A DNA stretch of 64,000 nt from Patescibacteria group bacterium (GCA_026397045.1 JAPLVO010000008.1:20850-84849); one strand, 5' to 3'. Positions 11,403-61,550 are shown, counted from the stretch's first letter. The notes: a model not told the origin generated them from the sequence alone. Numbers and translations: made by a program.

Positions 11403-12419
11403 ATGACTAAATATACTTCTCAACAGCTTAATACCCTCGTAGACGATGCTCTAGGTAGCCTTAAAAAAGACCGTGATAAGGAAGTCCTTCGGAGGCGTGG
11501 GGGTATTAATGTCGAGGCTCAGACGCTCGAACAGATTGGCCGAGATCTTAATATTACTCGAGAAAGGGTTCGTCAGATAGAAAAGGCGGCCCTTATTAAG
11601 ATTAGGGAGCTAAATAACCATGATTATGATTTTTCCAGGTCTATCATGGAGATATTATCGCAAAAAGGTGGGCTTGTAAGCCTGATGAGTGTAAATACCG
11701 AACTTGGGCTTGACCACACAAGAGAGCCTCAAGCTATATTTCTTATCAGGACCAACCCTTCGATGCTGTTTATTGACCGTAACGACCACCACCTGCGCAT
11801 CGTAGGTGATTCTTCGGTATTCACTCAAGAAAAGATTAAAGATGCCCATGATGCCCTCGTAGAAGTAATCAGGCAAAATGGTAAGCCAGCCAAGTTTGCC
11901 AGTATTTACAAGCTGATAGATGGTCCACACAGCGAAGATAGCCTGGCTGAGCTAGCTAAAGCTTCGAACTATCTAGCCGAGCTGGATGGTAGCTGGGGCC
12001 TAACTAGCTGGCCAGAGGTAAACCCAAAAAGTATTCGAGACAAAATATACCTTGTACTAAAAAAGGTGGGGCGCCCGATGCATTTCTCCGATATTGCTGA
12101 AAAAATTTCTTATTTAGCTGCTAACCCTAAAAAGGTGACTACCCAGGCTGTACACAATGAACTTATTAAAGACAAAAGATTTGTGTTGATAGGTCGTGGC
12201 ATCTATGCATTAGCAGAATGGGGCTACCGATCGGGCACTGTTGCTGATATCATAGAGGAGATCCTTAAAGAAGAGGCTGGACCTCTCAATAAAGATGAAA
12301 TTGTAAAGCGAGTTCTTGCAAGGCGTCAAGTAAAGACGACTACTATAGTCCTAAATCTTCAAGAAAAGCCACAATTTAAGAGAGTAAAAAAGGGCGTCTA
12401 TACTCTTACTAGTAGCTAA
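11403..12419 (+). CDS. sigma-70 region 4 (HTH) + C-terminal HARE-HTH-like winged-helix protein
   Basis: N-terminus VLRRRGGINVEAQTLEQIGRDLNITRERVRQIEKAALIKIRE is a textbook sigma region 4. Regions 1-3 are absent. The C-terminus HFSDIAEKI...GRGIYALAEWGY resembles the HARE-HTH of RNA polymerase delta. Confidence 0.55.
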   Translation: MTKYTSQQLNTLVDDALGSLKKDRDKEVLRRRGGINVEAQTLEQIGRDLNITRERVRQIEKAALIKIRELNNHDYDFSRSIMEILSQKGGLVSLMSVNTELGLDHTREPQAIFLIRTNPSMLFIDRNDHHLRIVGDSSVFTQEKIKDAHDALVEVIRQNGKPAKFASIYKLIDGPHSEDSLAELAKASNYLAELDGSWGLTSWPEVNPKSIRDKIYLVLKKVGRPMHFSDIAEKISYLAANPKKVTTQAVHNELIKDKRFVLIGRGIYALAEWGYRSGTVADIIEEILKEEAGPLNKDEIVKRVLARRQVKTTTIVLNLQEKPQFKRVKKGVYTLTSS

Positions 12420-12471
12420 AAAAGCAAAATATTAAAGGCAAGCGTATCACAGGCCTCTTTAGTCAAAAAAT

Positions 12472-15144
12472 ATGGAAATAATAATCAACATAATTACAAC
12501 TCTAGCCCAAACCATAGGAATTATCCTTTTCCAGTTTTGGGGCTGGGTTTTTATTGCCGGCTGGTTGGCCTATCAAATTTACTCTAATAATAAAAAAATC
12601 GCCTACATCGATCGAATCGACCATACATTATTACAAATCATAGTGCCCAAAGACAACGAAAAGAGTGAATTATCTGCCGAGCAGCTGTTTGCGAGTCTGC
12701 ATGGAATATTAAAACCAATCAAAGAAGATTCAGCCATTCAAGAGCACATTAGCTTCGAGATAGTTAGCCACGATCACCTCATATATTTTTATGTATGGTG
12801 TCCTAGGCACCTAAAGGACTATGTAGAGAGTCAAATATATGCTCAATACCCATTAGTCCAGATAACCGAAATGGATAAAGATTATAGTAAAAAGGACTTA
12901 TTGGGTCGAACCGCCTTTACGACAGAGGTTGTACTGGTTAAAAATCAAATCTTCCCTATAAAAACATTCGCAACATTCGAGGTTGACCCTTTAGCAGGGC
13001 TAACTACTGTACTGTCGAGTCTTGGTGATAGCGAAGAAATTTGGATTCAAATGCTACTGGAACCAGTCGATGACAGCTGGCATAAGGCATCTTTAGCCTA
13101 TGTAGATGAAGTCAAGAATGGAAAGAAGTTAGGACTATCGGACGATTTACGCAACAAGTCCTTGAAGGCTCCCGGAAAACTAATCAGCAGCTTGGTCTCC
13201 GCTGCTTTTACGCCTGAAACATACCGTGAAAATTCATCGGCAAAGAGTAAAGGTGGTGATAAAAAAGAATTATCTCCAGGGCAGACCACACTTTTGGCGG
13301 CCGTTGAAGCAAAAGCAGAGAAGCTAGGCTATGGGGTTAAGATACGAGTATGCTATATTGGCCAAAATCCAGCGGCTGCAAAGCAACGCTTGCAGGCTCT
13401 GGTTGGTGGCTTTAAGCAATTCAATACAGTCAATTTGAATGGTTTTGGTGGAACCCAAATGGTTGAGGGGACGGATGGGCTAGAAGACTACCAATCGAGA
13501 AAATTCGAAGACGATGGCTACATACTAAATATCGAAGAGGCGGCTAGTATATTTCATTTGCCCCACACCAGCGTGGAGACCCCCAATATAGCCTACACCT
13601 CGACCAAAGTAGGGGAGCCGCCCGCGGGACTACCAACCCTAAATAACACTAAAGCCGAAGACCTAAGCCTGTTTGGCAGCACTACTTTTAGGCAGGGGAA
13701 TATAAAATTCGGAATTAAAAGAATAGACCGCGAGAGGCACCTCTATATTATTGGAAAGAGTGGAGTCGGAAAATCATTTATGCTTAACTTGCTGACTCTG
13801 AGTGATATATATCAAAATGAAGGCTTCGCGGTAGTGGACCCACATGGGGATTTTGCACAAGACATTATGAAGTTTATACCTGAGAATCGAATCAAAGATG
13901 TTATCTACATCAACCCAGATGATTCCAACTTCCCCGTAGCATTTAACCCCATGGAGTACACGGATGAAAATCGGCGAAATAATATAGCCTCCGAAATAGT
14001 TGGTGTACTAAAAAAGATGTTCGGAGATAGCTGGGGTCCTAGACTAGAGCATATTTTGAGGTTTACTCTATTGGCATTACTAGAGACACCCGACACAACA
14101 ATGCTAGGCATTACCCGAATGTTAACCGACAAAAACTACCGCAAAACGATTGTGGATAACATATCTGATCCTATCGTGAAAGCCTTCTGGGTTACAGAGT
14201 TCGCTAGCTGGAACGATAAATTTGCCTCAGAAGCTGTTCAGCCAGTCCTCAACAAAGTTGGGGCCTTCACTGCTGTGCCGATCGTTAGAAATATTATCGG
14301 CCAGCCTAAGAGCTCATTTTCATTCAGAGAAGCTATGGATAATGGCAAGATAATTATTGTCAATTTAAGTAGGGGCTTAATTGGTGAGGACAACGCCGCA
14401 ATATTAGGTTCACTAATTATTACCAAAATCCAACTCGATGCCATGAGTAGATCTGATATAAAAAATGTTGCTGATCGAAGGCCATTCTACCTATATGTAG
14501 ATGAGTTTCAGAATTTTGCGACCGAGTCTTTTGCCGTCATATTATCCGAAGCCCGAAAGTATGGCCTAAGATTGACAGTAGCTAATCAGTACATCTCGCA
14601 GATGCCTGATGAAGTTAGGGACGCGGTGTTTGGCAATGTTGGCTCAATGGTAACCTTCCGTGTTGGTGCTGATGACGCCGACTACCTATCAAAGTACTTT
14701 GAGCCGGTATTTGAGCCTAAAGACCTTGTAAACCTTGATAAGCGAGATATATATGTATCTATGAGCATTGGCGGACAAACCTCTAATGCGTTTAGTGCCA
14801 AGAGCCTAAATATGCCAACTCCACAATATGATCATACCCAAGCAATTATAGAAAACTCGCGAGAGAATTACTCTTTGAAGAGGGCAGATGTAGAGGCTCT
14901 AATCGCAAACTGGGTATCCCCGGAAAGTCCCAAGGGAAATGAATCTAATGGCAAACCACAGTTGACTGGAGGCAATAGTGCTAATCCCGTCGCTAACACA
15001 GCTTCTGCTAAGCCTGCTCAGATAAGGCCAGAAATAAGCGGCGTAGAGCCCAAAAAATATAGTGAGCTGATTAAAAGCAAGCCTAATACTAATCGCAAAA
15101 GATACAACAATAGCAACAAGTATAAGAGTAATAAGTCATATTAG
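12472..15144 (+). CDS. membrane-anchored VirD4/TraG/HerA-superfamily (AAA_10-like) P-loop ATPase; possible type IV coupling protein
   Basis: Two N-terminal TM helices. Walker A YIIGKSGVGKSF, then VVDPHGDF. Walker B FYLYVDEFQNF. ARKYGLRLTVANQYISQM and FGNVGSMVTFRVGADDADYLS motifs typical of T4CP/HerA. Basic low-complexity C-terminal tail. Confidence 0.55.
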   Translation: MEIIINIITTLAQTIGIILFQFWGWVFIAGWLAYQIYSNNKKIAYIDRIDHTLLQIIVPKDNEKSELSAEQLFASLHGILKPIKEDSAIQEHISFEIVSHDHLIYFYVWCPRHLKDYVESQIYAQYPLVQITEMDKDYSKKDLLGRTAFTTEVVLVKNQIFPIKTFATFEVDPLAGLTTVLSSLGDSEEIWIQMLLEPVDDSWHKASLAYVDEVKNGKKLGLSDDLRNKSLKAPGKLISSLVSAAFTPETYRENSSAKSKGGDKKELSPGQTTLLAAVEAKAEKLGYGVKIRVCYIGQNPAAAKQRLQALVGGFKQFNTVNLNGFGGTQMVEGTDGLEDYQSRKFEDDGYILNIEEAASIFHLPHTSVETPNIAYTSTKVGEPPAGLPTLNNTKAEDLSLFGSTTFRQGNIKFGIKRIDRERHLYIIGKSGVGKSFMLNLLTLSDIYQNEGFAVVDPHGDFAQDIMKFIPENRIKDVIYINPDDSNFPVAFNPMEYTDENRRNNIASEIVGVLKKMFGDSWGPRLEHILRFTLLALLETPDTTMLGITRMLTDKNYRKTIVDNISDPIVKAFWVTEFASWNDKFASEAVQPVLNKVGAFTAVPIVRNIIGQPKSSFSFREAMDNGKIIIVNLSRGLIGEDNAAILGSLIITKIQLDAMSRSDIKNVADRRPFYLYVDEFQNFATESFAVILSEARKYGLRLTVANQYISQMPDEVRDAVFGNVGSMVTFRVGADDADYLSKYFEPVFEPKDLVNLDKRDIYVSMSIGGQTSNAFSAKSLNMPTPQYDHTQAIIENSRENYSLKRADVEALIANWVSPESPKGNESNGKPQLTGGNSANPVANTASAKPAQIRPEISGVEPKKYSELIKSKPNTNRKRYNNSNKYKSNKSY

Positions 15145-28499: not shown

Positions 28500-29030
28500 T
28501 TAATCTCCTGTTAAAATTGCTTGCCCTGGCTCCCAATCTATTGGACATAGGCCGCCAGTTTGCAGGGCCTGAACTACTCGCATTGTCTCGTCGACGCTAC
28601 GCCCGACATTACTATCTGAGAGTACCGCATACCTTAGCTTACCATCAGGGTCGATGATGAATGTACCTCTTTCGGATTCGCCATCTGCTTCATTTAGTAC
28701 TTCATAGGCAGTAGAGAGCTGGTGATTGGTATCGGCAAGGATAGGGAAATCGACATCTTTGAGGTCTCTCTCAAACCATGCTTTATGCGAATTAATACTA
28801 TCTGTACTCGCTGCTAAAATATAGGCATTGATCTTTTTAAATTCGGCACTCTTCTTGGCGAAACCCTCTATTTCTGTCGGGCAGACAAAGGTGAAGTCTC
28901 TGGGATAGAAAAATAGTACTACCCATTTACCTTTGTAGTCTTTCAGACTGATATCCTTGAAGTCTCCTTTGATGCCCTTCTGAAAGGCAGGCTGCTTAAA
29001 ATCTGGGGCTGGTTGGTTTAGTCTCAACAT
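28500..29030 (-). CDS. peroxiredoxin (AhpC/TSA family)
   Basis: Peroxidatic FTFVCPTEI motif. Confidence 0.85.
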   Translation of the reverse strand: MLRLNQPAPDFKQPAFQKGIKGDFKDISLKDYKGKWVVLFFYPRDFTFVCPTEIEGFAKKSAEFKKINAYILAASTDSINSHKAWFERDLKDVDFPILADTNHQLSTAYEVLNEADGESERGTFIIDPDGKLRYAVLSDSNVGRSVDETMRVVQALQTGGLCPIDWEPGQAILTGD

Positions 29031-29171
29031 TATTTTCTCCTTTAACTGATGATTAATTTAATATTTCCATTGCGACATCATAAGTGCCATTATTGTCTTA
29101 AATTACGATTAATAAAACTAATTACTTGTGTATGGGTTGTGTTTATATTGTACTACAGTAAGGACTTAAGC

Positions 29172-29654
29172 TCAAAATATATATATATTCGCTGGCCCGA
29201 TCTTTTGATCGATCTTCTTGCTTTCAAAGCTAAAGGCGTATGATATCACCACTGTTCCTGGTTTAAGTTCATTTTTGAACTTTTCATTTAAACGATGCAT
29301 ATAGGGGGCAGCCGAAAATATAAATACAACATCGGCCTTGGATAAATCAGCCTTCCAGTAATCGGTAATAACCACTTTCGCCTTTGGGTATTCACGCAAT
29401 CGGTATTTAGAGACCAGTGCAAGTACGGGATTGAGCTCATATCCAATGGCCTTATAACCGTGCTTGCTAGCCGACATTAGTACTCGTCCATCTCCACTGC
29501 CTAGGTCTACCACGGTGGACCCTTTTCTAATTTTAAGTACGGAGAATATGCCCTCTATAGCCTGATTATCTGTCGGAACAAAGGGGGCTCCGATAAACAC
29601 AATCATACCAAACGAAACAAATAGCAGTATAAGGAGTATCCAGATAATAATCAT
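29172..29654 (-). CDS. class I SAM-dependent methyltransferase with N-terminal TM segment
   Basis: VVDLGSGDGRVLM glycine-rich motif I. Confidence 0.55.
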   Translation of the reverse strand: MIIIWILLILLFVSFGMIVFIGAPFVPTDNQAIEGIFSVLKIRKGSTVVDLGSGDGRVLMSASKHGYKAIGYELNPVLALVSKYRLREYPKAKVVITDYWKADLSKADVVFIFSAAPYMHRLNEKFKNELKPGTVVISYAFSFESKKIDQKIGPANIYIF

Positions 29655-29663
29655 TACAAAATT

Positions 29664-30137
29664 CTACCCGTTTACTTTTAGCCAGCTTATCACTTCGGGT
29701 ACTGTCTTGAGTGGTTGAATTTTAGGCCACATTGCTATGATCTTTAAATCTGGGCCCAACATAACCGCAGATCGCTGAGTACCAAAGAATTTACGCCCAT
29801 ACATGCTCCGCTCCTGCCAAGCTCCATAGGCCTCTATCATTTCATGCTCAGGATCAGCCAAAATATCAAAGGGCAAATGGTGATTTTGTTTGAATTTAAA
29901 ATGGCTAGCAGCACTGTCTTTACTAACCCCAACCACATCTACCCCTAAGGCCTGTAGTTCTTCAAAATGATCTCGCAGCGAACAGGATTGCGCCGTGCAG
30001 CCTGGAGTTTCGTCCTTTGGATAAAAATAAATCAAAGTCGTCTTACCCTTCAAGCTATCTAGGGTATGAGTCTTGCCATCCTGGTCTTGGATATTAAATA
30101 CTGGTGCCTTATCGCCTACCTTAAGTTCCATCTGCAC
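29664..30137 (-). CDS. bcp: thiol peroxidase Bcp (atypical peroxiredoxin)
   Basis: PGCTAQSC active site. Confidence 0.8.
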   Translation of the reverse strand: MQMELKVGDKAPVFNIQDQDGKTHTLDSLKGKTTLIYFYPKDETPGCTAQSCSLRDHFEELQALGVDVVGVSKDSAASHFKFKQNHHLPFDILADPEHEMIEAYGAWQERSMYGRKFFGTQRSAVMLGPDLKIIAMWPKIQPLKTVPEVISWLKVNG

Positions 30138-32400: not shown

Positions 32401-32475
32401 TGGGGCGTCGCCAAGTGGTAAGGCAACGGTTTTTGGTACCGTCATACGCAGGTTCGAACCCTGCCGCCCCAGCCA
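32401..32475 (+). tRNA. tRNA-Gln (anticodon UUG)
   Basis: Cloverleaf folded by hand: acceptor UGGGGCG/CGCCCCA with the U1-A72 pair typical of tRNA-Gln, anticodon loop UUUUGGU, T-arm GCAGG-TTCGAAC-CCTGC, 3' CCA encoded. Close match to E. coli tRNA-Gln. Confidence 0.9.
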
Positions 32476-32589: not shown

Positions 32590-33723
32590 TTATTCTAGAT
32601 ACCCGCCTGTTCCTTTGTTTATTTTTGAATAAATCTGTTTATATATTATGTTTGCTTCAGAGTGAGTTAGTGACTTTTCTAAATGACGAAGCGTAATGCG
32701 TACAAGCACATTCTTTTGATTAGGGTTAATGCCTAAGCGACTTCTAGCCTTATCGGGCAATACTTCGTAGCTCGTTTCGCTTAAAATCTCTACACTCTCA
32801 AGGGAATCAAGTTTATTTCCAAGTGCATCGCGAATATCAGAGCTAATATCTTCTTCAACATAACCACTCGGTACACTATAAGATATATCTCGTACAATAG
32901 CGGGCTGATTTGATACCGCCCTGTAAGGTTCAAGATTACCCATTTGTTCAGCAATCTTAGGGTTGCTAGATCGTAGATAACGAACATCCGAAATGCCTTT
33001 AAGGGTCATAACCAAACGATCTAGGCCCATACCCAATGCCCAGCCAGAGTATTCACTTGGGTCAAGACCCGCATTTGTTAAGATTTTTTCTTTTATCAAT
33101 CCACATTCCAGGATCTCAATATCATGATCACTTTGTACCGCGTTTACTTCGATACCTTCGTTCGTATAAGGATGTGGTGAATCTACAATACGCAACTTCC
33201 AGCCTGGTGCAGCAGTTTTCGCCACGCCCTTTACGACGATAACTAGATCGTCCTTTACAATTGTTTTGCGGGCAGAGTTTTTTACAATTCTCCACATTTC
33301 AAGCATGTGGACTTCACTTACGTGTTTTTTATCAGACACATCACGCCTATAGGCTAATCCTGGTAGCAGTATAACGACATCATCCCAATCATCTCGCCTT
33401 GCAAGCTCTCTTAAGATACCTGGCAGGTGTGCACTGGTGTGGGTACGAAGTATATGTGAATTATCGACATAATGTGTGTAAGTTGAGGAACGGCTTATAT
33501 TGTCGCCAGAAATTAAGAGATTGTCGTAATTGTCTTCTACAGTGACCACAGGGTCTTTTCGATACACTAAAACTTCACTTTGCGGGTGACTTGAACGCAT
33601 ATACTGTTCGACTTTTTCATATACCATCTTAATAGCATGGGGTTTTTGTGACTGCGTAAGGTCACTAATTGCTAGGTATTTCTTAAGTGACTCCTGGCTG
33701 ATAGGCTCAATATACATTTTCAT
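32590..33723 (-). CDS. single-chain phenylalanyl-tRNA synthetase: PheS-type catalytic core + C-terminal FDX-ACB anticodon-binding domain (FARS2-like)
   Basis: LRTHTSA, motif 2 YRRDVSDKKHVSEVHMLEMW and motif 3 GWALGMGLDRLVM. C-terminal ~95 aa resemble the FDX-ACB domain of PheT. AAGGAG RBS 7 nt upstream of the ATG at 33723. Confidence 0.65.
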   Translation of the reverse strand: MKMYIEPISQESLKKYLAISDLTQSQKPHAIKMVYEKVEQYMRSSHPQSEVLVYRKDPVVTVEDNYDNLLISGDNISRSSTYTHYVDNSHILRTHTSAHLPGILRELARRDDWDDVVILLPGLAYRRDVSDKKHVSEVHMLEMWRIVKNSARKTIVKDDLVIVVKGVAKTAAPGWKLRIVDSPHPYTNEGIEVNAVQSDHDIEILECGLIKEKILTNAGLDPSEYSGWALGMGLDRLVMTLKGISDVRYLRSSNPKIAEQMGNLEPYRAVSNQPAIVRDISYSVPSGYVEEDISSDIRDALGNKLDSLESVEILSETSYEVLPDKARSRLGINPNQKNVLVRITLRHLEKSLTHSEANIIYKQIYSKINKGTGGYLE

Positions 33724-33758
33724 TTTAATACTCCTTATTATTATTTTAGTTGTTCGAG

Positions 33759-33789
33759 GCAAAATAAAAAACCTGCCTCGAGGGCAGGT
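33759..33789 (-). terminator. intrinsic terminator / attenuator hairpin immediately upstream of the PheRS RBS
   Basis: AACCTGCC-TCGAG-GGCAGGTT followed on the minus strand by TTTTTATTTT. Lies 35 nt before the PheRS start codon. Confidence 0.55.
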
Positions 33790-33812
33790 TCCAAATTATG
33801 GCAATGGGGACT

Positions 33813-34019: not shown

Positions 34020-35294
34020 TTATAAATACTTATTTAGGCTATTCACATACTTAATAATACTTGCATTGCCAGATCTATTAGCGTACATCTGCATGTTGCC
34101 AATAATTTTGCGATTAGCCTTTATGTCTTCTGCAGTATCAAGCTTACCTAGTTTTTTCTGTTCTTGCGAAAACAAACCTGCGTAACATTTTTTAACTGCA
34201 TCATGCTCACCAATCTCCCCAAAAGCTTTTAGCGCAGTATAATAGTCCCCTTTAGAGAAATAATATGCACCCTTGTTGTGATATATAGAATTATTAAGTT
34301 TAGCCCGATCAAGGGAATACTGGGCGAAGTTGAGGGCTTTTTTGTATTCGTTTCCTCGCATAAAATAAATTGCACCATTGTGGCCAGCCATATGAATAAG
34401 CTTAGGCTCATCGCTTTGTTTGGCGTACTTTAGGGCCTTAGCGTAGCTAGAACTGCCACAAAAATCTACCACGACATTATTATAGGCAGCTGCCAGGTTC
34501 TTTTCGACAATGTCGCGCTGACTACTGAGTATGTAGGCAATACGGGCAGACTCTAGCAGTGACTCGGCAGAAACATCGTGGGTCTTAAAATATTGGTCGC
34601 TAACATCAAGTAGATTTATACTTACAATCTCTTCGATAGGTAATAAATTCTGGTTAGGCTTTTTGTAGTTAGCGAAAGTTCCACTGGTGGCCTCAATATC
34701 AGCGCCCTTAAAATGCAGTGCGACATGACCCGGATAAGTCTTTATTTCTAGGTCCTTAATATCATGTCTTAGCGAATAAAGGTGTATATATAATGTAACA
34801 ATTTGGTTGCAATCACCCTCCAGCATATTTTTGCCCGGATCCTTCAAGAGTTCTCCAAAAGTACAAGATTTGCGGTATTTGTAGCGCCCAGCATGCGGGG
34901 ACAAGTATGACATTATACTGCGCAGGTATTGCAGCTGCTCAGCATGCTCGGAGAGATTTTTGCTATCTATGCCAGCTGCACTAATCTCGGCCAAGACTTG
35001 ATCTACAGAATGTTTGTTTTTAGACAAATAAATCTCAAAGCTGCTGGCAATGGCCAGAGAGTTATTATAGAGCTCGCGCCTTTTTGCTTTTTTTAGGTAT
35101 TTATAGCCGCGGTATTTGAATTCACTCCAAAGATTAATACCTATAATGTTGTTTTGCAAGAACCAGTCTAGATCTTTCCTGATATCATCTTTAGTTTGGT
35201 GCTCATCTAGCTTGGCAAAAAACTTAGCCACCCTGCGCTCGCTAGGGTCAGTGTTATTACTAAATAAATAAAATATTTTTTGAAAAATGTTCAT
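34020..35294 (-). CDS. hypothetical protein with TPR/Sel1-like repeats
   Basis: C-terminal half shows an A/Y/G-rich helical-repeat pattern. No catalytic motif. Confidence 0.35.
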   Translation of the reverse strand: MNIFQKIFYLFSNNTDPSERRVAKFFAKLDEHQTKDDIRKDLDWFLQNNIIGINLWSEFKYRGYKYLKKAKRRELYNNSLAIASSFEIYLSKNKHSVDQVLAEISAAGIDSKNLSEHAEQLQYLRSIMSYLSPHAGRYKYRKSCTFGELLKDPGKNMLEGDCNQIVTLYIHLYSLRHDIKDLEIKTYPGHVALHFKGADIEATSGTFANYKKPNQNLLPIEEIVSINLLDVSDQYFKTHDVSAESLLESARIAYILSSQRDIVEKNLAAAYNNVVVDFCGSSSYAKALKYAKQSDEPKLIHMAGHNGAIYFMRGNEYKKALNFAQYSLDRAKLNNSIYHNKGAYYFSKGDYYTALKAFGEIGEHDAVKKCYAGLFSQEQKKLGKLDTAEDIKANRKIIGNMQMYANRSGNASIIKYVNSLNKYL

Positions 35295-35340: not shown

Positions 35341-35811
35341 CTACAGCAGCTTCTTGATATCGTCTTCCATTTTGATTGGTTCTAGATTGCTAGCAAATCG
35401 GGCTACGACATTACCTTCTCTATCAATCAAAAACTTTGTAAAGTTCCATTTTATGGCACTTAGTAAGCCGCCTTTTTGTTTTTTTAGGTATTTATACAGA
35501 GGGTCGGCATTTTTGCCGTTGACATCAATCTTTGCGAAAGTCTCAAAAGTTGTTTTATAGCGCATGGCGCAAATATTGGCTATTTCTTCGTCTGATTCTG
35601 GAGCCTGATTGGCAAATTGATTGCAGGGAAAATCTAGAATCTCTAGGCCGTCTTTGTGGTATTTTTTATATAGCTTCTCTAGGCCTTCATATTGAGGGGT
35701 AAAGCCACAGTGAGTCGCGGTGTTGACTATAAGTAGTACCTTGCCGCGGTATTTAGTCATCTCTTGCATCTTGCCATCTACTTGCTTGATCTTATAGTCA
35801 TATATACTCAA
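35341..35811 (-). CDS. glutathione peroxidase family (Cys-type)
   Basis: NTATHCGFT and FPCNQFANQ motifs. Confidence 0.85.
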   Translation of the reverse strand: MSIYDYKIKQVDGKMQEMTKYRGKVLLIVNTATHCGFTPQYEGLEKLYKKYHKDGLEILDFPCNQFANQAPESDEEIANICAMRYKTTFETFAKIDVNGKNADPLYKYLKKQKGGLLSAIKWNFTKFLIDREGNVVARFASNLEPIKMEDDIKKLL

Positions 35812-35916
35812 AATATTTAGTTCCTTGTTTACTTGTTATAGTTCTATTTTACTACACTTGGCTGTGTTTTAGATGCCTAAATACAAATGGCTTTGCTATA
35901 ATAGCAGTCATATATC

Positions 35917-36696
35917 ATGATAATTTTACTTCACTCATCTAAGACAATGAAGGCCACCAAGCTAGTAGGGCTAGAGCTATCTAAGCCGGCGCTGGCGGCT
36001 CAAGCTCAAGAGCTAGGGGTCTATTTGGCGAGCTTAAAGCTCGGAGAGATTCAGGCCGTCATGGGGGTTTCTGGCAATCTGGCTCAAGAAATCATGACCA
36101 CAGCTAGTAGCTGGCCAGCTGCTCAAGACAAGGGCTCAGCCCTGCATAGCTTTCGGGGGGATGTTTTTAGTGGCTTGCAGGTGGCAAGCTTTGATAAAAA
36201 AGATCTAGCATATGCCAACCAACACCTCAAAATAATTTCTGGCCTGTATGGCCTTTTGCGGCCGCTTGATGCCGTGTCGCCTTATCGGCTAGAGATGGGC
36301 TACAAGCTGATTCGCGAGCCCTTCACCAGCTTGTATAAGTTCTGGAGTGATACGCTAGCCAAGCTACTACCAGCAGGCCAGCCAATTGTTAATTTGACTT
36401 CTCTAGAGTATGGGCGGGCCATTGTGCCTTATCTAGACAAGAGCTTAGTCATAAGCCCGCGATTTTATACATACAACGCCAAGGCTCGTCAGTACACCAG
36501 CGTAGCCGTGCATTCTAAAATAGCCCGCGGGGCCTTTGCGCACTGGCTTATAACTAAACGCATCAATAAGGTTTCAGAGCTAACTAATTTTGATGAGATC
36601 GGCTATAGGTATGAGGCCTCGCTAAGCACCCCACTGGCGCCAGCCTTTGTGTGTCGTGATTTTATGGGCAAAGGGCTGAGTGTTAGGCTGGGTTAA
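35917..36696 (+). CDS. yaaA: peroxide stress protein YaaA (UPF0246)
   Basis: N-terminal MIILLHSSKTM. Length and pattern match the YaaA family. Confidence 0.75.
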   Translation: MIILLHSSKTMKATKLVGLELSKPALAAQAQELGVYLASLKLGEIQAVMGVSGNLAQEIMTTASSWPAAQDKGSALHSFRGDVFSGLQVASFDKKDLAYANQHLKIISGLYGLLRPLDAVSPYRLEMGYKLIREPFTSLYKFWSDTLAKLLPAGQPIVNLTSLEYGRAIVPYLDKSLVISPRFYTYNAKARQYTSVAVHSKIARGAFAHWLITKRINKVSELTNFDEIGYRYEASLSTPLAPAFVCRDFMGKGLSVRLG

Positions 36697-55494: not shown

Positions 55495-56334
55495 CTATAG
55501 CGCAAAACTTCTTTTGATCTTTATGAACAATAAAATTCTAATTTTTACGAATAAAGGAAGGCTGGCTCTAGATTTTGAAAGCTCACTGGCAGGCCTACTA
55601 TTTATCAATTTAGTTAACTCGCTGAAGTACGAATAAGCAAGCTCCACACCATATCGGCTAGACTTAGGTAGGGACTTTATAGCTCCACTGGCTATTTTTA
55701 GATCCTTATTTATATCTTCTGTGATGTCAGTGATATCTTGCTGGGTTAGGTTCTTTGAAGATTTGCCAGGAAAATATAATCGGCCAAGATTACCAGAATC
55801 ATCGGAGATATCTCTTAGGAAATTTATCTTTTGGAATGCAGAGCCCAGTGCTCTGGCAGATGGCTTTAACTCCCTAAACTTTTTCTTATCACCGGCCACA
55901 AATACCATTAAGCACATTAGGCCCACAGCTTCAGCTGAGCCATATATATAATCACTGTACTCTTCTAGAGAATACCGCTTCTTTTTAATATCCATGCGCA
56001 TGCTATCCATGAATGAGTCGATCAAATCCATGGGTATACCGTACTCACGAACAACCAAGCAAAAACTATGGACAATTGGGTTAATGCTAAAACCCGTCTT
56101 TAAGGCTCTTTTGGTGTCAGCTGTTAGCTCATCGAGATATTCAGCCATTTCCTTAGGCCGCCATGTATCCACGACCTCGTCTGCTATTCTAACAAACCCG
56201 TAAATAGACACTATTGAGTCTGCCACTTTGGGGCTAAGGAGCTTAGTTGCAGATGAGAATGAGCTTGAATAAGAGAAGGTGATGTCTCGACTTAAGCGAA
56301 TGCTTATTTGGTTATATAGGCCAATATTAATCAC
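55495..56334 (-). CDS. crtB: phytoene/squalene synthase family (CrtB/CrtM-like)
   Basis: Asp-rich YGFVRIADEVVD and signature-2 LGSAFQKINFLRDISDDSGNLGRLYFP. Confidence 0.7.
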   Translation of the reverse strand: MINIGLYNQISIRLSRDITFSYSSSFSSATKLLSPKVADSIVSIYGFVRIADEVVDTWRPKEMAEYLDELTADTKRALKTGFSINPIVHSFCLVVREYGIPMDLIDSFMDSMRMDIKKKRYSLEEYSDYIYGSAEAVGLMCLMVFVAGDKKKFRELKPSARALGSAFQKINFLRDISDDSGNLGRLYFPGKSSKNLTQQDITDITEDINKDLKIASGAIKSLPKSSRYGVELAYSYFSELTKLINSRPASELSKSRASLPLFVKIRILLFIKIKRSFAL

Positions 56335-56339
56335 TGCTA

Positions 56340-57410
56340 CTACTTTTTCCTAGCCACACAGTATGAGGCGAGATTTCTTAAAAGATCTTCGAGCTCAGTA
56401 TCTAGGTTCATCCTATCCAATATTAATAAGGACTTTTTAAGATGATCATCTGCCGCAACAGTGACCTTAGCCCGTGCACCACATTCCTCGAGAATAACTC
56501 GGACTATCTTGGTGTCATGAATATTTATATCCGTCTTGCCCAGCCTAGTCTCAATGGCCTTCCATTGCAGTGGAGATGATAGCTTTTTAGCATAATACAT
56601 CAGTAGCGTTTGTTTACCTTCGCGAATATCTGAGCCGACTGGCTTACCTGTTTGTCGACTTGAGCCAAACATGCCAAGGAGGTCGTCTGCGAGCTGGAAA
56701 GCTTTGCCTAATTCAGAGCCAAACTCAGCAAAGAGCTTAAAAAGCTTACTATTTCCCCCGGCGGCGACAATGCCTAGTTGCATGGGATATGTAATAGTAT
56801 ATTGAGCAGTTTTATAAAAATTCACCTTTTCTATTTTACTTAGATTCAAATCTCCTCTAAGACCCGCCATGACATCTAATTGCTGCCCTGCTCCGGTATC
56901 GAAAAGTGTTTTTTGGAAATGCTTCATCATTTCGAACACCAGCTTGGGGTCGAGGTCGAGGCTGGTTAGCACTTCAAATGTAAAGAACTCATTTAGCTCC
57001 CCTGCTAAAATAGCGATGGACTCGGCAGTTTTCCTAGCAGGTTTATCATCTAGCAGCTTCTTGAACCTTTTTTCATATACTCCCGTAATATTTGCGCCGC
57101 CGTAGCGTGTGGTATCGCCGTCCATAATATCATCATGGATAAGTACGAAGTTATGAAAAATTTCTAACGATACAGATGCATCCAGGGCCTTAGCTATTTC
57201 TTTGCCGCCGGCAGCCCTATAGCCTAGTACCATTAAGGTTGGCCTGAGTCTCTTGCCGCCTCTGAGAATGAACTTCTTCATATCCAGCAGCAGCTTGGCA
57301 TAGACTGGATCAATCTTACTAGCCTCGGCTATTTTAAGATCATAGAAATCAGATAATCTACCATCTACCTCTGATTTAACAAACTTGTTTAATGCAATAA
57401 ATTTTTCCAT
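56340..57410 (-). CDS. polyprenyl diphosphate synthase (GGPP/FPP synthase, CrtE/IdsA-like)
   Basis: FARM LIHDDIMDGD and SARM FQLADDLLG. Confidence 0.8.
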   Translation of the reverse strand: MEKFIALNKFVKSEVDGRLSDFYDLKIAEASKIDPVYAKLLLDMKKFILRGGKRLRPTLMVLGYRAAGGKEIAKALDASVSLEIFHNFVLIHDDIMDGDTTRYGGANITGVYEKRFKKLLDDKPARKTAESIAILAGELNEFFTFEVLTSLDLDPKLVFEMMKHFQKTLFDTGAGQQLDVMAGLRGDLNLSKIEKVNFYKTAQYTITYPMQLGIVAAGGNSKLFKLFAEFGSELGKAFQLADDLLGMFGSSRQTGKPVGSDIREGKQTLLMYYAKKLSSPLQWKAIETRLGKTDINIHDTKIVRVILEECGARAKVTVAADDHLKKSLLILDRMNLDTELEDLLRNLASYCVARKK

Positions 57411-57411
57411 A

Positions 57412-58911
57412 CTACGCCTTAGTATCCTTCAAAATCCTTTCCATGACTAGCTTAGCACTAAGGGTCACCATCGGTATGCCGCCTCCAGGATAGGTGCTCG
57501 CACCGACAAAATAAAGGTTCTTTATATCCTTACTTTTATTGTGTGGCCTAAAATAGCCAGACTGCAAAAAGTGATGGCTCAGACCAAAAGCAGATCCGAT
57601 GTGCAAATTATATTTGTCTCTGAAATCTTCTGGCGTAAAAATAGATTCCACTTTTATTTTTTTCTCAATATCCAAATCAAACTCCGTCTTTAGCCTTGAT
57701 AGTACCTGCTTTCTAAGGCGTTTTATGCCAGACTGCCATTGCACCTTTGAATCAAGATTCGGAACCGGCACCAGTACATAGAATACACTCTTTCCTTTTG
57801 GTGCCAAGCTTGGGTCAGTCTTGGTAGGAATATAAGTATAAAACGAAGGATCCTTAGGAAGTTTTTTCTGATGGAATATTTCATCAAGATTATTTTTAAA
57901 GTCTTTACAGAGATATACATTATGATGAAGCATGCCCTCGCAGCTATCATCTACACCCCAATAGAATAGTAAGGCTGAGCTTGCCTGCTTATATGATTCG
58001 AGTTTTGTATTAGGAGTCGAAGGTCGATCTTTTTCATCAATCAATTTCATCTGAGAATATACTAAATCAGCATTGGCTACAATTGTATCCGCATAAAGTT
58101 TTTTGTTCTTATTTGTCCTAATACCGACTGCGGTTTTGTTTTCTATAATTATTTCTTCTACCGGTGTCGAGGTAATTATTTTACCCCCTAAATCTTTGAC
58201 CAGCTTTTCAATAGCCAAAGATAGTGAGTACATGCCACCCTTTGGATACCAAATACCCAATCCTGTTTCCATATAGCTCACCACGCTATAAACCGCTGGT
58301 GCCTCGTGCGGACTAACACCCAAATACATACTTTGAAAACTAAATAATTGCCTAAGGCGCTCATCTTTGAAATAACGCGAGACAAATTTATAGAGCTTAG
58401 ATAAGCCTCTCTTTTTGAATAATTGGGCACCACTTACGGGGCTGATGAAGTCGGTAATATTGCTAAAGTTTTTATCTATAAAGTTAGCCCTAGCGATTCT
58501 ATATATCTCCGATACATCGCCGAAAAATTTATAAAACTGCTCTGGGCCTTTAGGGTCAAACTTGGACAGCTCGCTTGCAAATTTTGGTAAATTACTACTT
58601 ACAGTAATTCTACTTTTATCGGCGAATGCAACTTGATAGTTTGGCTCTAGCTGTAACAACTCGATATAGTCATCGAAATTTTTACCACAGTAGCTGAAGG
58701 TCTCATAGAGGGTATCGGTCATCATGAGAAGGGTCGGCCCCATGTCAAAAGTGTAGCCACTTTTCTCAATACGGTGTGCTCGGCCGCCAATTTTATCTTC
58801 CTTTTCGACAATAGTGACTTCGTAGCCATTTTTAAGCAAACGAGCAGCCGCACACATCCCGCCTATGCCGCCGCCAACTATAATTACACTTTTGAGTTTA
58901 TTATTTTTCAT
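57412..58911 (-). CDS. crtI: phytoene desaturase family (CrtI/CrtN)
   Basis: N-terminal FAD fold VIIVGGGIGGMCAAARL...EKEDKIGGRA. About 500 aa amine-oxidase fold. Confidence 0.8.
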   Translation of the reverse strand: MKNNKLKSVIIVGGGIGGMCAAARLLKNGYEVTIVEKEDKIGGRAHRIEKSGYTFDMGPTLLMMTDTLYETFSYCGKNFDDYIELLQLEPNYQVAFADKSRITVSSNLPKFASELSKFDPKGPEQFYKFFGDVSEIYRIARANFIDKNFSNITDFISPVSGAQLFKKRGLSKLYKFVSRYFKDERLRQLFSFQSMYLGVSPHEAPAVYSVVSYMETGLGIWYPKGGMYSLSLAIEKLVKDLGGKIITSTPVEEIIIENKTAVGIRTNKNKKLYADTIVANADLVYSQMKLIDEKDRPSTPNTKLESYKQASSALLFYWGVDDSCEGMLHHNVYLCKDFKNNLDEIFHQKKLPKDPSFYTYIPTKTDPSLAPKGKSVFYVLVPVPNLDSKVQWQSGIKRLRKQVLSRLKTEFDLDIEKKIKVESIFTPEDFRDKYNLHIGSAFGLSHHFLQSGYFRPHNKSKDIKNLYFVGASTYPGGGIPMVTLSAKLVMERILKDTKA

Positions 58912-58941
58912 TATTTAGTGAATATATAATATAATAATACT

Positions 58942-59256
58942 GTGAATAATGCATATTTAGCCATACTTTTATTTAGCATAGCGGGGATGGGTATAATTGA
59001 CGCCCGCTATAAGTTAGTATTTTTTTTAGATTATAAATCGGCCGCCAAGAGCATCGCCATAGTGATGACGCTGCTTTTAGTTATTGATGTGATAGGAATA
59101 AATTTAGATATATTCAGCACTAATCCAGATTATGTGACTGGCATTTTTATTGGCAGCGAAAACCTGCCGCTGGAGGAATTCTTTTTTTTATTTCTTCTTT
59201 GCTATTTCACGCTATCTATCAATCGGATAATATCGTCGAGACTTAAAAATGTTTAA
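58942..59256 (+). CDS. lycopene-cyclase-domain small membrane subunit (CrtYe/LbtA-like)
   Basis: About 100 aa, 3 TM helices, conserved PLEEFFF (PxEE) motif. Confidence 0.5.
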   Translation: MNNAYLAILLFSIAGMGIIDARYKLVFFLDYKSAAKSIAIVMTLLLVIDVIGINLDIFSTNPDYVTGIFIGSENLPLEEFFFLFLLCYFTLSINRIISSRLKNV

Positions 59257-59557
59257 ATATAGTGGCTTGATTATATTATGTTTAGCGCTGTCGACTGGTA
59301 TTATATTTATTTACAAATTAAAAGTAACGCTTAGCAAAGCACTACTATACACCGGGCTTGTAAGTTTTGTTGCTATGCTGTTTTTTAACACCATACTCAC
59401 GAGCCTGCCTATAGTGGTGTATAATACGGCTTCAACTCTAAATATTAGAGTCCTAACATTCCCTATTGAGGACATAGGATATTTATTGGCGGTCTTAATG
59501 ATTCTGCCAGCTTTGTTTGAAAAGTTTATTAACGAAAGTAGTTCTAATAAAAAATAA
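59249..59557 (+). CDS. lycopene-cyclase-domain small membrane subunit (CrtYf/LbtB-like)
   Basis: About 100 aa, 3 TM helices, FPIEDIGY (PxED) motif. Overlaps the previous gene by 8 nt. Confidence 0.5.
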   Translation: MFKYSGLIILCLALSTGIIFIYKLKVTLSKALLYTGLVSFVAMLFFNTILTSLPIVVYNTASTLNIRVLTFPIEDIGYLLAVLMILPALFEKFINESSSNKK

Positions 59558-61550
59558 TCATCAGCTTTCTATTCGAGAAGTTTTAGCCAGTTCTAGGCCA
59601 TTTAGCTGGGTTAACACTGTCGGTCCTTTCTTTGTAGGCTATACGATTGCCAATGGCTCGATCAATCTCCCCTGCGTGGTAGGTGCGGTTTACTTTTGCT
59701 TCTTCTACAATTTTTTATTATATGGAGTGAATGATATATTTGATTATGAATCAGATATAAAAAATCCTCGAAAAAATTCTATAGAGGGTGGCCTGGTCGA
59801 CAAGAGCAAACATAATCTGATGTTCGCTCTTATAATAGCTACGAATATACCTATTTTAATATACCTAATGGCCACTGGCAGCATACTTAGTGGCTCAATA
59901 CTGGCCCTAATCATATTTTTTGCATTTAGCTATTCCGCTAAGCCATTCAGATTTAAAGAGGTGCCAATTCTAGATTCGATAAATTCTAGCTTGCACTTTG
60001 TGATGCCTTTAGTTTTTGGCTTGGTTTATGCAGGTGCCACCAGCCTTCCTTGGCCAGCGATAATATCTTTCTTTTTGTGGGGAGCTGCCTCGCAGGCCCT
60101 AGGAGCTATCCAGGACATTAAGCCCGATAGGGCAGGCGGTATAGAGTCGATCGCAACCAAGCTGGGGTCAAAGTTTACAAATAGGTATAGCATTATTCTT
60201 TATACCGTGAGCTGTATCATACCCGTCATATTCTATTTCCCATGGGGAATAGCTGTAGGAATTATACTTTCCCTTTACCCATTAAATGTTCTGTTCTTTA
60301 GCAGATTCAAATCAGATGCTAAGAGTGGTGAATACAATAGGGCCTGGAAAAACTTTCTATGGTTAAACCTGCTGTGTGGTTTCTGGCTAAGTCAACTGTT
60401 ACTGTTCGTCTTTGACCCATTAGGGCTGGGGCTAAGCAGGATAGCTTTGCTGGGAGTCTTTATTATTATTATTGGCTTGGCTCAACTATCCCTTACTCTG
60501 TACAATTACAAGAAATTCACTCGTCCCAAGACTAAACGCCTCAATGATCTGCCGCATATAGATATACTACTCCACTCCACCGGCAACAAGGATAATATCG
60601 CCTCCACGCTCCTTGCTCTGATAGGCCAAAACTACCCTCACTTTGATATTTACTACGCCAACCTAGATAATGACCCGCGCTCCAGGAAGATCGCTGAAGG
60701 CTACCAGGATAAAAGGCTACAAATCGTTGACGCTGGCAGAACTCCAGCCGGCTGGAGTCAGGCGGCCTGGGCTAGCAATGTATTATTTAAAAAATCTAAA
60801 TCGGATATAAATGTATTAATAAGCCCAGATACTATTCTGCTACCCAACACCCTTTCGGTAATTGCCAGCATGTTCGACTCTAGCGATCTAGATCTAGTAT
60901 CATTATTGCCGGCTGATCAAAATGAATCATTATGGCAGCAACTTTTAATGAGCCAGGAACACTATTTGCTATTAGGACTCTACCCTTCTGCATACATCAC
61001 CAAAAACCACCCAAAACTAGCCACGGCTTATAGTAATTTAATTGCTTTTAAGAAGTCTCCGCTTAAAAAAGTTGGTGGGTTTGAATTAACCAAAAACAGC
61101 CCCCTTGAGGACCTCGATATAGCCAATAAAGCCAACCAAATCGGGCTAAACACTAAATTCTATTGTGCTAGCGACTTGGCAGTTAGCCAGAATAGATCTG
61201 GGCTAGTGAGTTTAGCTGCCTACAACCAACAAAAACTGTATCCTAGCCTACACTTCAATATGCCCCTTACTGTTGCTCTTATTTCGGGTGGTATTTTCAT
61301 TATTTCATTCCCAATATTCTTATTAAGCGCCTTGATGCTAGCAGGGATATATGATGGCACAATACTTTTGGCGATAGGTTGTGCTCTACTGCTATTCAAT
61401 AGGCTAGTAGTAATGGTCAAATCCAAGCAGAGCATTTCTGGTGCTCTGCTTTACCCATTAGGCTGTCTTGCGATTTTGCTGCAACTTTTCACATCGATGC
61501 TCTATTATGAGCTAAGAAAGCACAGCTGGAAAAGCCGCTACGAACTATAG
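59517..61550 (+). CDS. fusion: UbiA-family prenyltransferase (lycopene-elongase-like) + C-terminal GT2 glycosyltransferase
   Basis: N-terminal SRPFSW and NDIFDYESD (NDxxDxxxD) UbiA motifs with 7-8 TM helices. C-terminal GT2 region (DxD-like LDND, then 2-3 terminal TM helices). Confidence 0.55.
   Translation: MKSLLTKVVLIKNNHQLSIREVLASSRPFSWVNTVGPFFVGYTIANGSINLPCVVGAVYFCFFYNFLLYGVNDIFDYESDIKNPRKNSIEGGLVDKSKHNLMFALIIATNIPILIYLMATGSILSGSILALIIFFAFSYSAKPFRFKEVPILDSINSSLHFVMPLVFGLVYAGATSLPWPAIISFFLWGAASQALGAIQDIKPDRAGGIESIATKLGSKFTNRYSIILYTVSCIIPVIFYFPWGIAVGIILSLYPLNVLFFSRFKSDAKSGEYNRAWKNFLWLNLLCGFWLSQLLLFVFDPLGLGLSRIALLGVFIIIIGLAQLSLTLYNYKKFTRPKTKRLNDLPHIDILLHSTGNKDNIASTLLALIGQNYPHFDIYYANLDNDPRSRKIAEGYQDKRLQIVDAGRTPAGWSQAAWASNVLFKKSKSDINVLISPDTILLPNTLSVIASMFDSSDLDLVSLLPADQNESLWQQLLMSQEHYLLLGLYPSAYITKNHPKLATAYSNLIAFKKSPLKKVGGFELTKNSPLEDLDIANKANQIGLNTKFYCASDLAVSQNRSGLVSLAAYNQQKLYPSLHFNMPLTVALISGGIFIISFPIFLLSALMLAGIYDGTILLAIGCALLLFNRLVVMVKSKQSISGALLYPLGCLAILLQLFTSMLYYELRKHSWKSRYEL

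Follow-up and report, generated by a model that had tools for sequence, protein, structure and literature searches.

A single-chain, synthetase-like protein of the SrmL family in a Saccharibacterium keeps its ATP-site residues and differs from phenylalanyl-tRNA synthetases at the specificity sites

PylRS and SepRS are precedents for a change of specificity among relatives of phenylalanyl-tRNA synthetase (PheRS): in both, a PheRS-like core has come to work with a different amino acid and a different tRNA. NCBIfam contains another PheRS-related family, NF051887, the "PheS-related mystery ligase SrmL". Here we describe a gene, srmL, from a Patescibacteria group bacterium (GCA_026397045.1). The whole stretch of DNA that we analyzed, called the window below, is 64,000 nucleotides (nt) long (JAPLVO010000008.1:20850-84849), and positions are counted within it. 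An initial annotation had read the gene as a mitochondrial-type PheRS, similar to FARS2. We found that it is a further member of the curated and named SrmL family, to which no function has been assigned. Our literature search found no paper on SrmL, on a "mystery ligase" or on a bacterial monomeric PheRS. Beyond what the sequence itself shows, the analysis adds three points: the family differs from FARS2 at both sites of specificity, it is broad and mobile, and on huge contigs from the IMG/VR database it is located beside tRNA-Phe genes.

The window protein is a full-length member of the SrmL family. It matched the NF051887 model with 411.5 bits (cutoff 300, E 2.7e-123), with residues 20-371 aligned to positions 2-349 of the 349 in the profile. 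In contrast, it scored 162.1 bits with the mitochondrial PheRS model TIGR00469 and 86.2 bits with the bacterial PheS model TIGR00468, under the respective cutoffs of 258.35 and 237.45. The PylS profile gave a weak match (E 1e-4). The top 120 of 614 homologues were 72-98% identical to the window protein and came from metagenome-assembled genomes (MAGs) of Saccharibacteria/Saccharimonadales, the closest being 374-379 amino acids (aa) long; on this basis we assign the window to a Saccharibacterium. A protein that is 98% identical is labeled "hypothetical" in GenBank, and these SrmL proteins are labeled PheRS alpha chain by the Joint Genome Institute (JGI). When 1.84 billion representatives were searched exhaustively, 123 matches were below 1e-30. 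All 71 full-length representatives, and the window protein, matched the SrmL model; among them is WP_108125014.1 from the gammaproteobacterium Saccharospirillum mangrovi, a protein with the name SrmL in UniRef.

SrmL is separate from FARS2 in phylogeny. In a neighbor-joining tree of the core, which was rooted on Escherichia coli PheS alone and is therefore weakly rooted, the SrmL proteins were monophyletic (bootstrap 99/100), with the window protein inside the clade. The clade adjoins a grade of FARS2-type sequences, and the named members of that grade are eukaryotic (locust, Vitrella). Orthology to FARS2, which the initial annotation had proposed to check by a phylogeny against FARS2 and PheS, was not borne out. 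The SrmL clade is marked by the signatures HPYTxxG, H..(P)HQxDxW and LPxxAxxRLGxxxxQKN, and the window protein has the first and the last as HPYTNEG and VLPDKARSRLGINPNQKN. Its motif 2 variant, VHMLEMW, is specific to the Saccharimonadales. Most SrmL members have PHQxDxW; that is, Gln140 is replaced by Met and Asp142 by Glu in the window clade.

Table 1. Features of srmL and its product. Positions are those of the window; residues are those of the 377-aa protein.
Feature	Position	Strand	Basis or remark
srmL coding sequence	32590..33723	-	377 aa and TAA stop; list of open reading frames (ORFs), NF051887 match
PheS-type class II catalytic core, residues 25-260	32944..33651	-	Pfam PF01409 (tRNA-synt_2d), E 2e-29; Foldseek matches to PheS alpha of many bacteria
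LRTHTS, residues 92-97	33433..33450	-	Sequence; R93 in 71/72 family representatives
Motif 2 region GLAYRRDVSDKKHVSEVHMLEMW, residues 122-144 (GLAYRRD...VHMLEMW)	33292..33360	-	R126 kept; VHMLEM in place of FHQxEG, then W144
HPYT in place of the FPFT ring clamp, residues 184-187	33163..33174	-	Alignments; FARS2-type representatives keep FPFT
Motif 3 GWALGMGLDRLVM, residues 227-239	33007..33045	-	R236 invariant, A229 kept
FDX-ACB-like anticodon-binding domain, residues 271-373	32605..32913	-	Pfam PF03147, 33.5 bits (cutoff 31.1)
Family-specific insertion VLPDKARSRLGINPNQKN, residues 321-338	32710..32763	-	Absent from E. coli PheT and FARS2-type proteins
Terminator-like hairpin and T-run	33768..33792	-	Just upstream of srmL; closes the preceding 424-aa ORF

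The architecture given in the initial annotation, a single protein with a PheS core containing LRTHTS and motifs 2 and 3 and a C-terminal FDX-ACB-like domain, is confirmed far beyond chance (Table 1). The ORF that encloses the gene extends from 32590 to 33762 on the minus strand. The ATG at 33723 is preceded by AAGGAG 7 nt to its 5' side, and the MKMYI with which the protein begins is common to SrmL homologues. An AlphaFold2 model made from a 54-sequence alignment had a predicted local distance difference test (pLDDT) score of 94.7. The C-terminal domain was modeled as strand-helix-strand-(extra helix)-strand-helix and aligns with the C-terminal domain of FARS2; the insertion VLPDKARSRLGINPNQKN contains a helix at residues 324-330.

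The overall form is that of mitochondrial PheRS and not of the bacterial two-subunit enzyme, also as proposed. Among solved structures, the best Foldseek match was closed human mitochondrial PheRS (3CMQ, 5MGV and related entries), with a template-modeling (TM) score of 0.76-0.80 over both domains. The open, tRNA-bound form of the mitochondrial enzyme had a TM score of 0.61, and bacterial PheS chains matched over the core alone. A sequence search against solved structures gave FARS2 (E 1e-28). Pfam found no match to PF02912, the N-terminal coiled-coil arm, and neither Pfam nor the model revealed an editing domain (B3/4) in the chain. Thus, the description of the protein as FARS2-like stands for the fold and the packing of the domains. 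It does not stand for the family, as seen in the scores above, nor for the pocket motifs FPFT, FHQxEG and GWAFG and the D-x-[FY], Ser and C-terminal Arg residues, which are absent. Based on the model, SrmL is best described as a self-contained, single-chain class IIc synthetase-like enzyme that has a PheS core, a remodeled ferredoxin-fold RNA-binding domain and no editing domain.

The distribution of SrmL is patchy and mobile, with paralogy. A scan of one genome per species gave at least 521 SrmL loci, and we determined the taxa of the best 80. Carriers among these 80 included Patescibacteria (Saccharibacteria, Dojkabacteria, Nomurabacteria, Falkowbacteria and others), Myxococcota (Sorangium, Minicystis, Myxococcus, Anaeromyxobacter), Actinomycetota (Kitasatospora, Streptomyces, Kutzneria, Amycolatopsis, Arthrobacter sp. 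C2 and others), Gammaproteobacteria and Gemmatimonadota. Three of 72,556 plasmids had srmL. One copy is on an Azotobacter plasmid amid insertion sequence (IS) elements. Another, on Glutamicibacter pGnB68, adjoins cmx and has tet(33) in its vicinity, and the third, which is truncated, is between erm(X) and tet(65) on a plasmid of Corynebacterium diphtheriae. Some Patescibacteria have two copies: a Nomurabacteria genome (L035, 10001-11113 and 16441-17700), another Patescibacteria contig with tandem paralogues (L049, 9938-12379), and a Saccharibacteria MAG with paralogues on two contigs (L019, L020).

The neighbors of SrmL are not conserved within the Saccharimonadales, among 54 loci of high guanine-plus-cytosine (GC) content, or across phyla, with the exception of five Patescibacteria-like loci. 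An apparent cluster of neighbors at 22 loci consisted of antisense shadow ORFs in high-GC DNA. SrmL of the window is 73-78% identical to that of other Saccharimonadales, and neighboring families that are shared (orthology unchecked) are only 27-45% identical, a difference that suggests constraint on SrmL. In the five exceptional loci (L027, 11226-16861; L028, 11195-16871; L031; L032; L047), SrmL adjoins a conserved operon that encodes a divergent LysRS-like protein (264 bits, cutoff 468), two dCTP-deaminase-like proteins, an S-adenosylmethionine methyltransferase, and diaminopimelate-decarboxylase-like and LD-carboxypeptidase-like proteins. This operon could specify a small-molecule or aminoacyl-nucleotide pathway. 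We also noted a protein, P0230, with a divergent SrmL-like core that has LPWV instead of HPYT. In this protein a chorismate mutase domain (residues 283-357; E 6e-9 to the N-terminus of E. coli TyrA) replaces the RNA-binding domain, a fusion that appears to link the family to aromatic amino acids. PADLOC gave no match that would indicate a role in a defense system.

We tentatively favor, with somewhat less than even confidence, the reading that SrmL is an accessory, editing-less single-chain synthetase that joins a Phe-sized aromatic amino acid to tRNA-Phe, and that it is a compact PheRS in huge phages. SrmL would bind ATP and the amino acid and form an aminoacyl-adenylate. The C-terminal domain would then swing open, as in mitochondrial PheRS, and hold a tRNA, most likely tRNA-Phe(GAA), and the amino acid would be transferred to the 3' end of that tRNA. 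In cells, SrmL would be an extra enzyme that moves horizontally and works beside canonical PheS and PheT, and in huge phages it would be a one-gene substitute for PheRS. That is, we infer catalytic activity, Phe as the substrate and tRNA-Phe as the acceptor.

The residues of the ATP site are conserved. We counted conservation in 72 family representatives and in 121 close homologues from Saccharimonadales. R126 of motif 2 and R236 of motif 3 were invariant or nearly so in both sets, and H139, G208 and D246 were also conserved. In the 121 close homologues, R126, H139 and W144 were invariant and M140 was present in 119. T187 and A229, which we take to correspond to T251 and A294 of E. coli, the residues that set the size of the Phe pocket, were present in 121/121, as were H184 and Y186. 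The retention of T187 and A229 on the pocket floor would argue for a substrate of the size of Phe.

A link of SrmL to tRNA-Phe probably exists, based on the huge IMG/VR contigs. In a scan of IMG/VR, six contigs of 145-578 kb had SrmL-type genes that carry every signature of the clade, and MAGs of giant viruses had FARS2-type genes. We take the six contigs to be from huge phages, given their origin in IMG/VR, their tRNA arrays and their collagen-repeat proteins. On three of them (L151, L152 and L156; 415-578 kb), the SrmL-type gene is inside an array of 25-29 tRNA genes. The L152 locus has just two tRNA-Phe(GAA) genes, and the SrmL-type gene is between them, with one 171 nt upstream and the other 151 nt downstream. 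In L156, which is related to L152, tRNA-Phe and tRNA-Val directly precede the gene, and the tRNA-Phe is 111 nt upstream. The tRNA-Phe genes are ordinary in appearance: the anticodon is GAA, A73 is present and the CCA end is encoded. On L151, three tRNA-Lys genes are immediately followed by a LysRS-like gene and a cluster of tRNA-Ser genes by SerRS, and TyrRS is close by; the first two cases show that synthetase genes on this contig sit by their cognate tRNAs. Scans with narrow patterns found no canonical PheT or PheS on the six contigs. As a separate observation, ARAGORN predicted a tRNA with the four-base anticodon GGAA and an enlarged anticodon loop at 1850-1924 of the 508 kb contig L151, beside tRNA-Trp and tRNA-Phe.

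Several findings weigh against this reading. The residues for adenylation are kept and those that define the specificity of PheRS are not. In the window protein FPFT is changed to HPYT, with His184 and Tyr186 at the positions of the two Phe residues that, as we understand the PheRS structures from Thermus thermophilus, sandwich the phenyl ring of the substrate. The canonical FHQxEG is PHQxDxW in the SrmL family and VHMLEMW in the window clade, with Gln replaced by Met; GWAFG is GWALG in the window protein. Most of nine FARS2-type representatives keep FPFT, FHQxE/DG and GWAFG, with a few single substitutions (FPYT, FPFV). The D-x-[FY], Ser and C-terminal Arg that are common to E. coli PheT and FARS2-type proteins, and that presumably read G34 as in the T. 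thermophilus complex, are replaced in the SrmL family. In their place the family has SETxY, the conserved insertion and another tail; in the window protein they are replaced by SETSY, QKN and a tail that ends in GGYLE, in addition to the insertion. Because these residues are replaced, reading of the GAA anticodon by SrmL, if it happens, must presumably work differently.

Other points against the reading come from the genomic context and the literature. Adjacency to tRNA-Phe was seen in one lineage only (L152 and L156) and for this reason is suggestive and not proof. SrmL in L151 is not adjacent to tRNA-Phe, L153-L155 have no tRNA genes near SrmL, and tRNA-Phe was next to SrmL in 0/85 cellular loci scanned. 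Neither pheS nor pheT was found in the 64-kb window, which is a weak absence because the window is about 6% of a genome of roughly 1 Mb. The NCBI curators call the family a mystery, and the literature that we searched contains no biochemical data on SrmL.

The main rival reading, which is possible although on balance we doubt it, is that SrmL is a neofunctionalized ligase. In this case adenylation would have been kept and the amino acid, the RNA target or both would have been switched, for example to a hydroxylated or non-standard aromatic or to another RNA, making SrmL a third PheRS-derived enzyme alongside PylRS and SepRS. Both specificity sites have been remodeled and since then held constant: the residues H184, Y186 and W144 and the LPxxAxxRLGxxxxQKN insertion are dominant across the 72 representatives, and L322, L330, G331, Q336, K337 and N338 of VLPDKARSRLGINPNQKN were present in all 121 close homologues. 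The monophyly of SrmL apart from the FARS2 type, the several paralogues per genome in Patescibacteria, which suggest diversified targets, and the five Patescibacteria loci with a divergent LysRS-like gene and small-molecule enzymes are all in keeping with a new function, as is the curators' choice of "mystery ligase". However, retention of T187 and A229 makes a bulkier substrate with a para substituent less likely, SrmL has no dedicated tRNA gene beside it on plasmids or at most loci, and neighbors are not conserved across phyla. In addition, the huge contigs pair the gene with a tRNA-Phe(GAA) of ordinary appearance. A more specific proposal seems improbable to us. In this proposal SrmL would be the third synthetase derived from PheRS, would have a specificity that is all its own and charge tRNA-Phe or another tRNA with a non-standard aromatic amino acid, and would spread among bacteria and huge phages as a one-gene module.

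An accessory enzyme for Phe could also be a spare PheRS that is insensitive to inhibitors. Second copies of IleRS, TrpRS or SerRS are known to give antibiotic resistance, and SrmL could similarly bypass a PheRS blocked by natural inhibitors or toxic Phe analogues. Such an enzyme would be one version of the reading that we favor, different in role only, and we think that it is a long shot. Copies in mosaic resistance regions (cmx/tet(33) on pGnB68, and the truncated copy between erm(X) and tet(65) in C. diphtheriae) speak for such a role. So do the enrichment of the family in antibiotic producers among the Actinomycetota and Myxococcota and in the Saccharibacteria, whose hosts are Actinobacteria, the position of the window copy among peroxide-stress genes, and an altered lining of the active site that could exclude inhibitors. 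On the other side, plasmid copies are few, the pGnB68 copy is unique among the plasmids, the 54 high-GC loci show no conserved tie to biosynthetic clusters or resistance genes, and there were no PADLOC matches.

It is unlikely that SrmL is the sole PheRS of this bacterium. According to this model, to which we give little credence, this Saccharibacterium has lost pheS and pheT and depends on a one-chain, editing-less enzyme. Genomes of Patescibacteria are reduced, the conservation of the protein resembles that of a core translation factor, and the JGI annotation is that of a PheRS alpha chain. The lack of pheS and pheT extends from the window to about 200 collected loci, none of which has a PheT-like sequence next to SrmL. 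An FtsX/ABC pair just past the end of the window resembles the neighbors of pheT in the cultivated Saccharibacterium Southlakia epibionticum, and in a metagenome scan 0 of 54 loci with this pair had pheT. Of the other anchors toward pheT that we considered, UvrB, GapA and TrxB, none was present in the collected loci. However, the window is a small part of the genome, and pheS and pheT are near-universal bacterial markers, including in Patescibacteria, which counts against their loss. The changed residues of the Phe pocket also count against it.

The distribution of SrmL argues against a sole PheRS as well. It is found on chromosomes of Streptomyces, Kitasatospora, Myxococcus, Sorangium and Arthrobacter and on plasmids, and some Patescibacteria have two copies. 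Many of these bacteria must have PheST. In the Arthrobacter group, for instance, a PheT of 847 aa is ubiquitous and SrmL is found in Arthrobacter sp. C2, although none of the 120 matches listed in a search for Arthrobacter PheT (at least 87% identity) was from the C2 chromosome (4,555,954 bp). S. epibionticum is the one Saccharibacterium with a full table of annotated genes and transposon sequencing (Tn-seq) results. Its pheS (SEML1_0572) and pheT (SEML1_0562) were called essential by Tn-seq, and the 853-aa PheT has B3/4, B5 and FDX-ACB domains (PMC10633639). The gene table has exactly one protein with PF01409 and one with PF03147 (PMC10633639), indicating that S. epibionticum has no SrmL. We infer that SrmL coexists with pheS and pheT in the genome described here.

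It is scarcely credible that SrmL is a pseudo-synthetase without catalytic activity that acts in regulation or as a scaffold, as HisZ does. SrmL is paralogous to a housekeeping synthetase and its substrate-site residues are altered, which would suit such a role, but it has motif 2 and 3 arginines and other ATP-site residues that are invariant across phyla and retains a full, conserved RNA-binding domain.

The window copy of srmL is chromosomal and has housekeeping neighbors; no phage genes were seen near it. A tRNA-Gln(TTG) gene at 32401-32475 on the plus strand is convergent with srmL and lies 115 nt past its stop. At other loci in Saccharibacteria, the tRNA genes that adjoin SrmL are those for tRNA-Pro, tRNA-Met (two genes) or tRNA-Ala. 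The location of these copies suggests that in Saccharibacteria SrmL is at tRNA-linked sites of insertion or rearrangement. We considered the flanking tRNA of cellular copies as the cognate tRNA and rejected this, because the tRNAs differ and none is tRNA-Phe; the variety (Gln, Pro, Met, Ala) fits hot spots of insertion or rearrangement. We also looked for a T-box or other leader 5' of srmL. Rfam gave only the tRNA-Gln and a weak P9 match that is accounted for by the terminator-like hairpin. The 424-aa ORF upstream of srmL (34020-35294, minus strand) has no match in Pfam, NCBIfam or PADLOC and was seen only in contigs of the same strain.

Genes for peroxide stress are found on both sides of srmL (28500-30137 and 35341-36696) and encode two AhpC/TSA peroxiredoxins, a glutathione peroxidase and YaaA. 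CP066696.1 and the JGI contig Ga0105237_10000001 carry close SrmL homologues. An AhpC/TSA gene is also 3 kb from srmL both in CP066696.1 and in a 1-Mb JGI contig, which could be chance. Farther away, a carotenoid-type cluster (55495-61550) encodes a squalene/phytoene synthase, a polyprenyl synthase, a desaturase of the flavin adenine dinucleotide (FAD) amine-oxidase type, two small lycopene-cyclase-like ORFs and a 677-aa UbiA prenyltransferase fused to a glycosyltransferase. This cluster, in a Saccharibacterium, resembles actinobacterial genes for C50 carotenoids and may have been acquired from a host. Two proteins are encoded at 11403-15144: one of 338 aa, which has a sigma-70 region-4-like N-terminus and an RNA polymerase delta-like segment, and after it a VirD4/TraD-like coupling protein of 890 aa.

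A widespread synthetase-like family with intact residues for its chemistry, present at no fewer than 521 loci in many phyla, on plasmids and on huge IMG/VR contigs, has no assigned substrate. If SrmL is a working one-gene PheRS, it would explain how phages and bacteria with small genomes obtain Phe-tRNA in the absence of both editing and the two-subunit enzyme, which takes up 3.4 kb. It would also be a compact tool for engineering and would bear on the origin of mitochondrial PheRS. A related idea is that the bacterial single-chain lineage may be the stock from which mitochondrial PheRS came, rather than a fusion in an early eukaryote. If the specificity of SrmL has changed, it would represent a new kind of tRNA charging. 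There is also a practical consequence. The PF01409 domain serves as a single-copy marker, and SrmL proteins that pipelines label "PheRS alpha chain" could inflate estimates of contamination for Patescibacteria genomes.

Of the known systems, the NF051887 family itself is the closest. The window protein matches it end to end, has the same length and both domains, and shares the HPYT and RLG..QKN signatures. It differs from most members in the VHMLEMW of its subclade (PHQxDxW elsewhere), and the family was named without an assigned function. FARS2 (TIGR00469; 3CMQ, 3TUP) likewise combines a PheS core and a C-terminal FDX-ACB domain in one chain that lacks an editing domain, and it is the nearest clade in the tree. 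In contrast to FARS2, for which it is under the model cutoff, the window protein has HPYT, VHMLEM and GWALG in place of FPFT, FHQxE/DG and GWAFG. It also lacks the D-x-F, Ser and C-terminal Arg, and its RNA-binding domain is extended by an insertion of about 12-17 residues.

Heterotetrameric bacterial PheRS (PheS, TIGR00468, and PheT, TIGR00472) has a homologous core, and its last PheT domain is homologous to the C-terminal domain of SrmL. In contrast to this enzyme, the window protein has no N-terminal coiled-coil arm, no beta subunit encoded nearby and no B3/4 editing domain. PylRS and SepRS belong to the same class IIc catalytic superfamily. They differ in that there is no membership at the level of sequence, the RNA-binding domains are other ones, and SrmL is without an accompanying dedicated tRNA gene. 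Finally, the synthetases of huge phages and giant viruses are similar in setting to the SrmL-type genes that, alongside genes for SerRS, a LysRS-like protein and TyrRS, we found within tRNA arrays on contigs of 415-578 kb, whereas the window copy is part of a chromosome and is surrounded by housekeeping genes.

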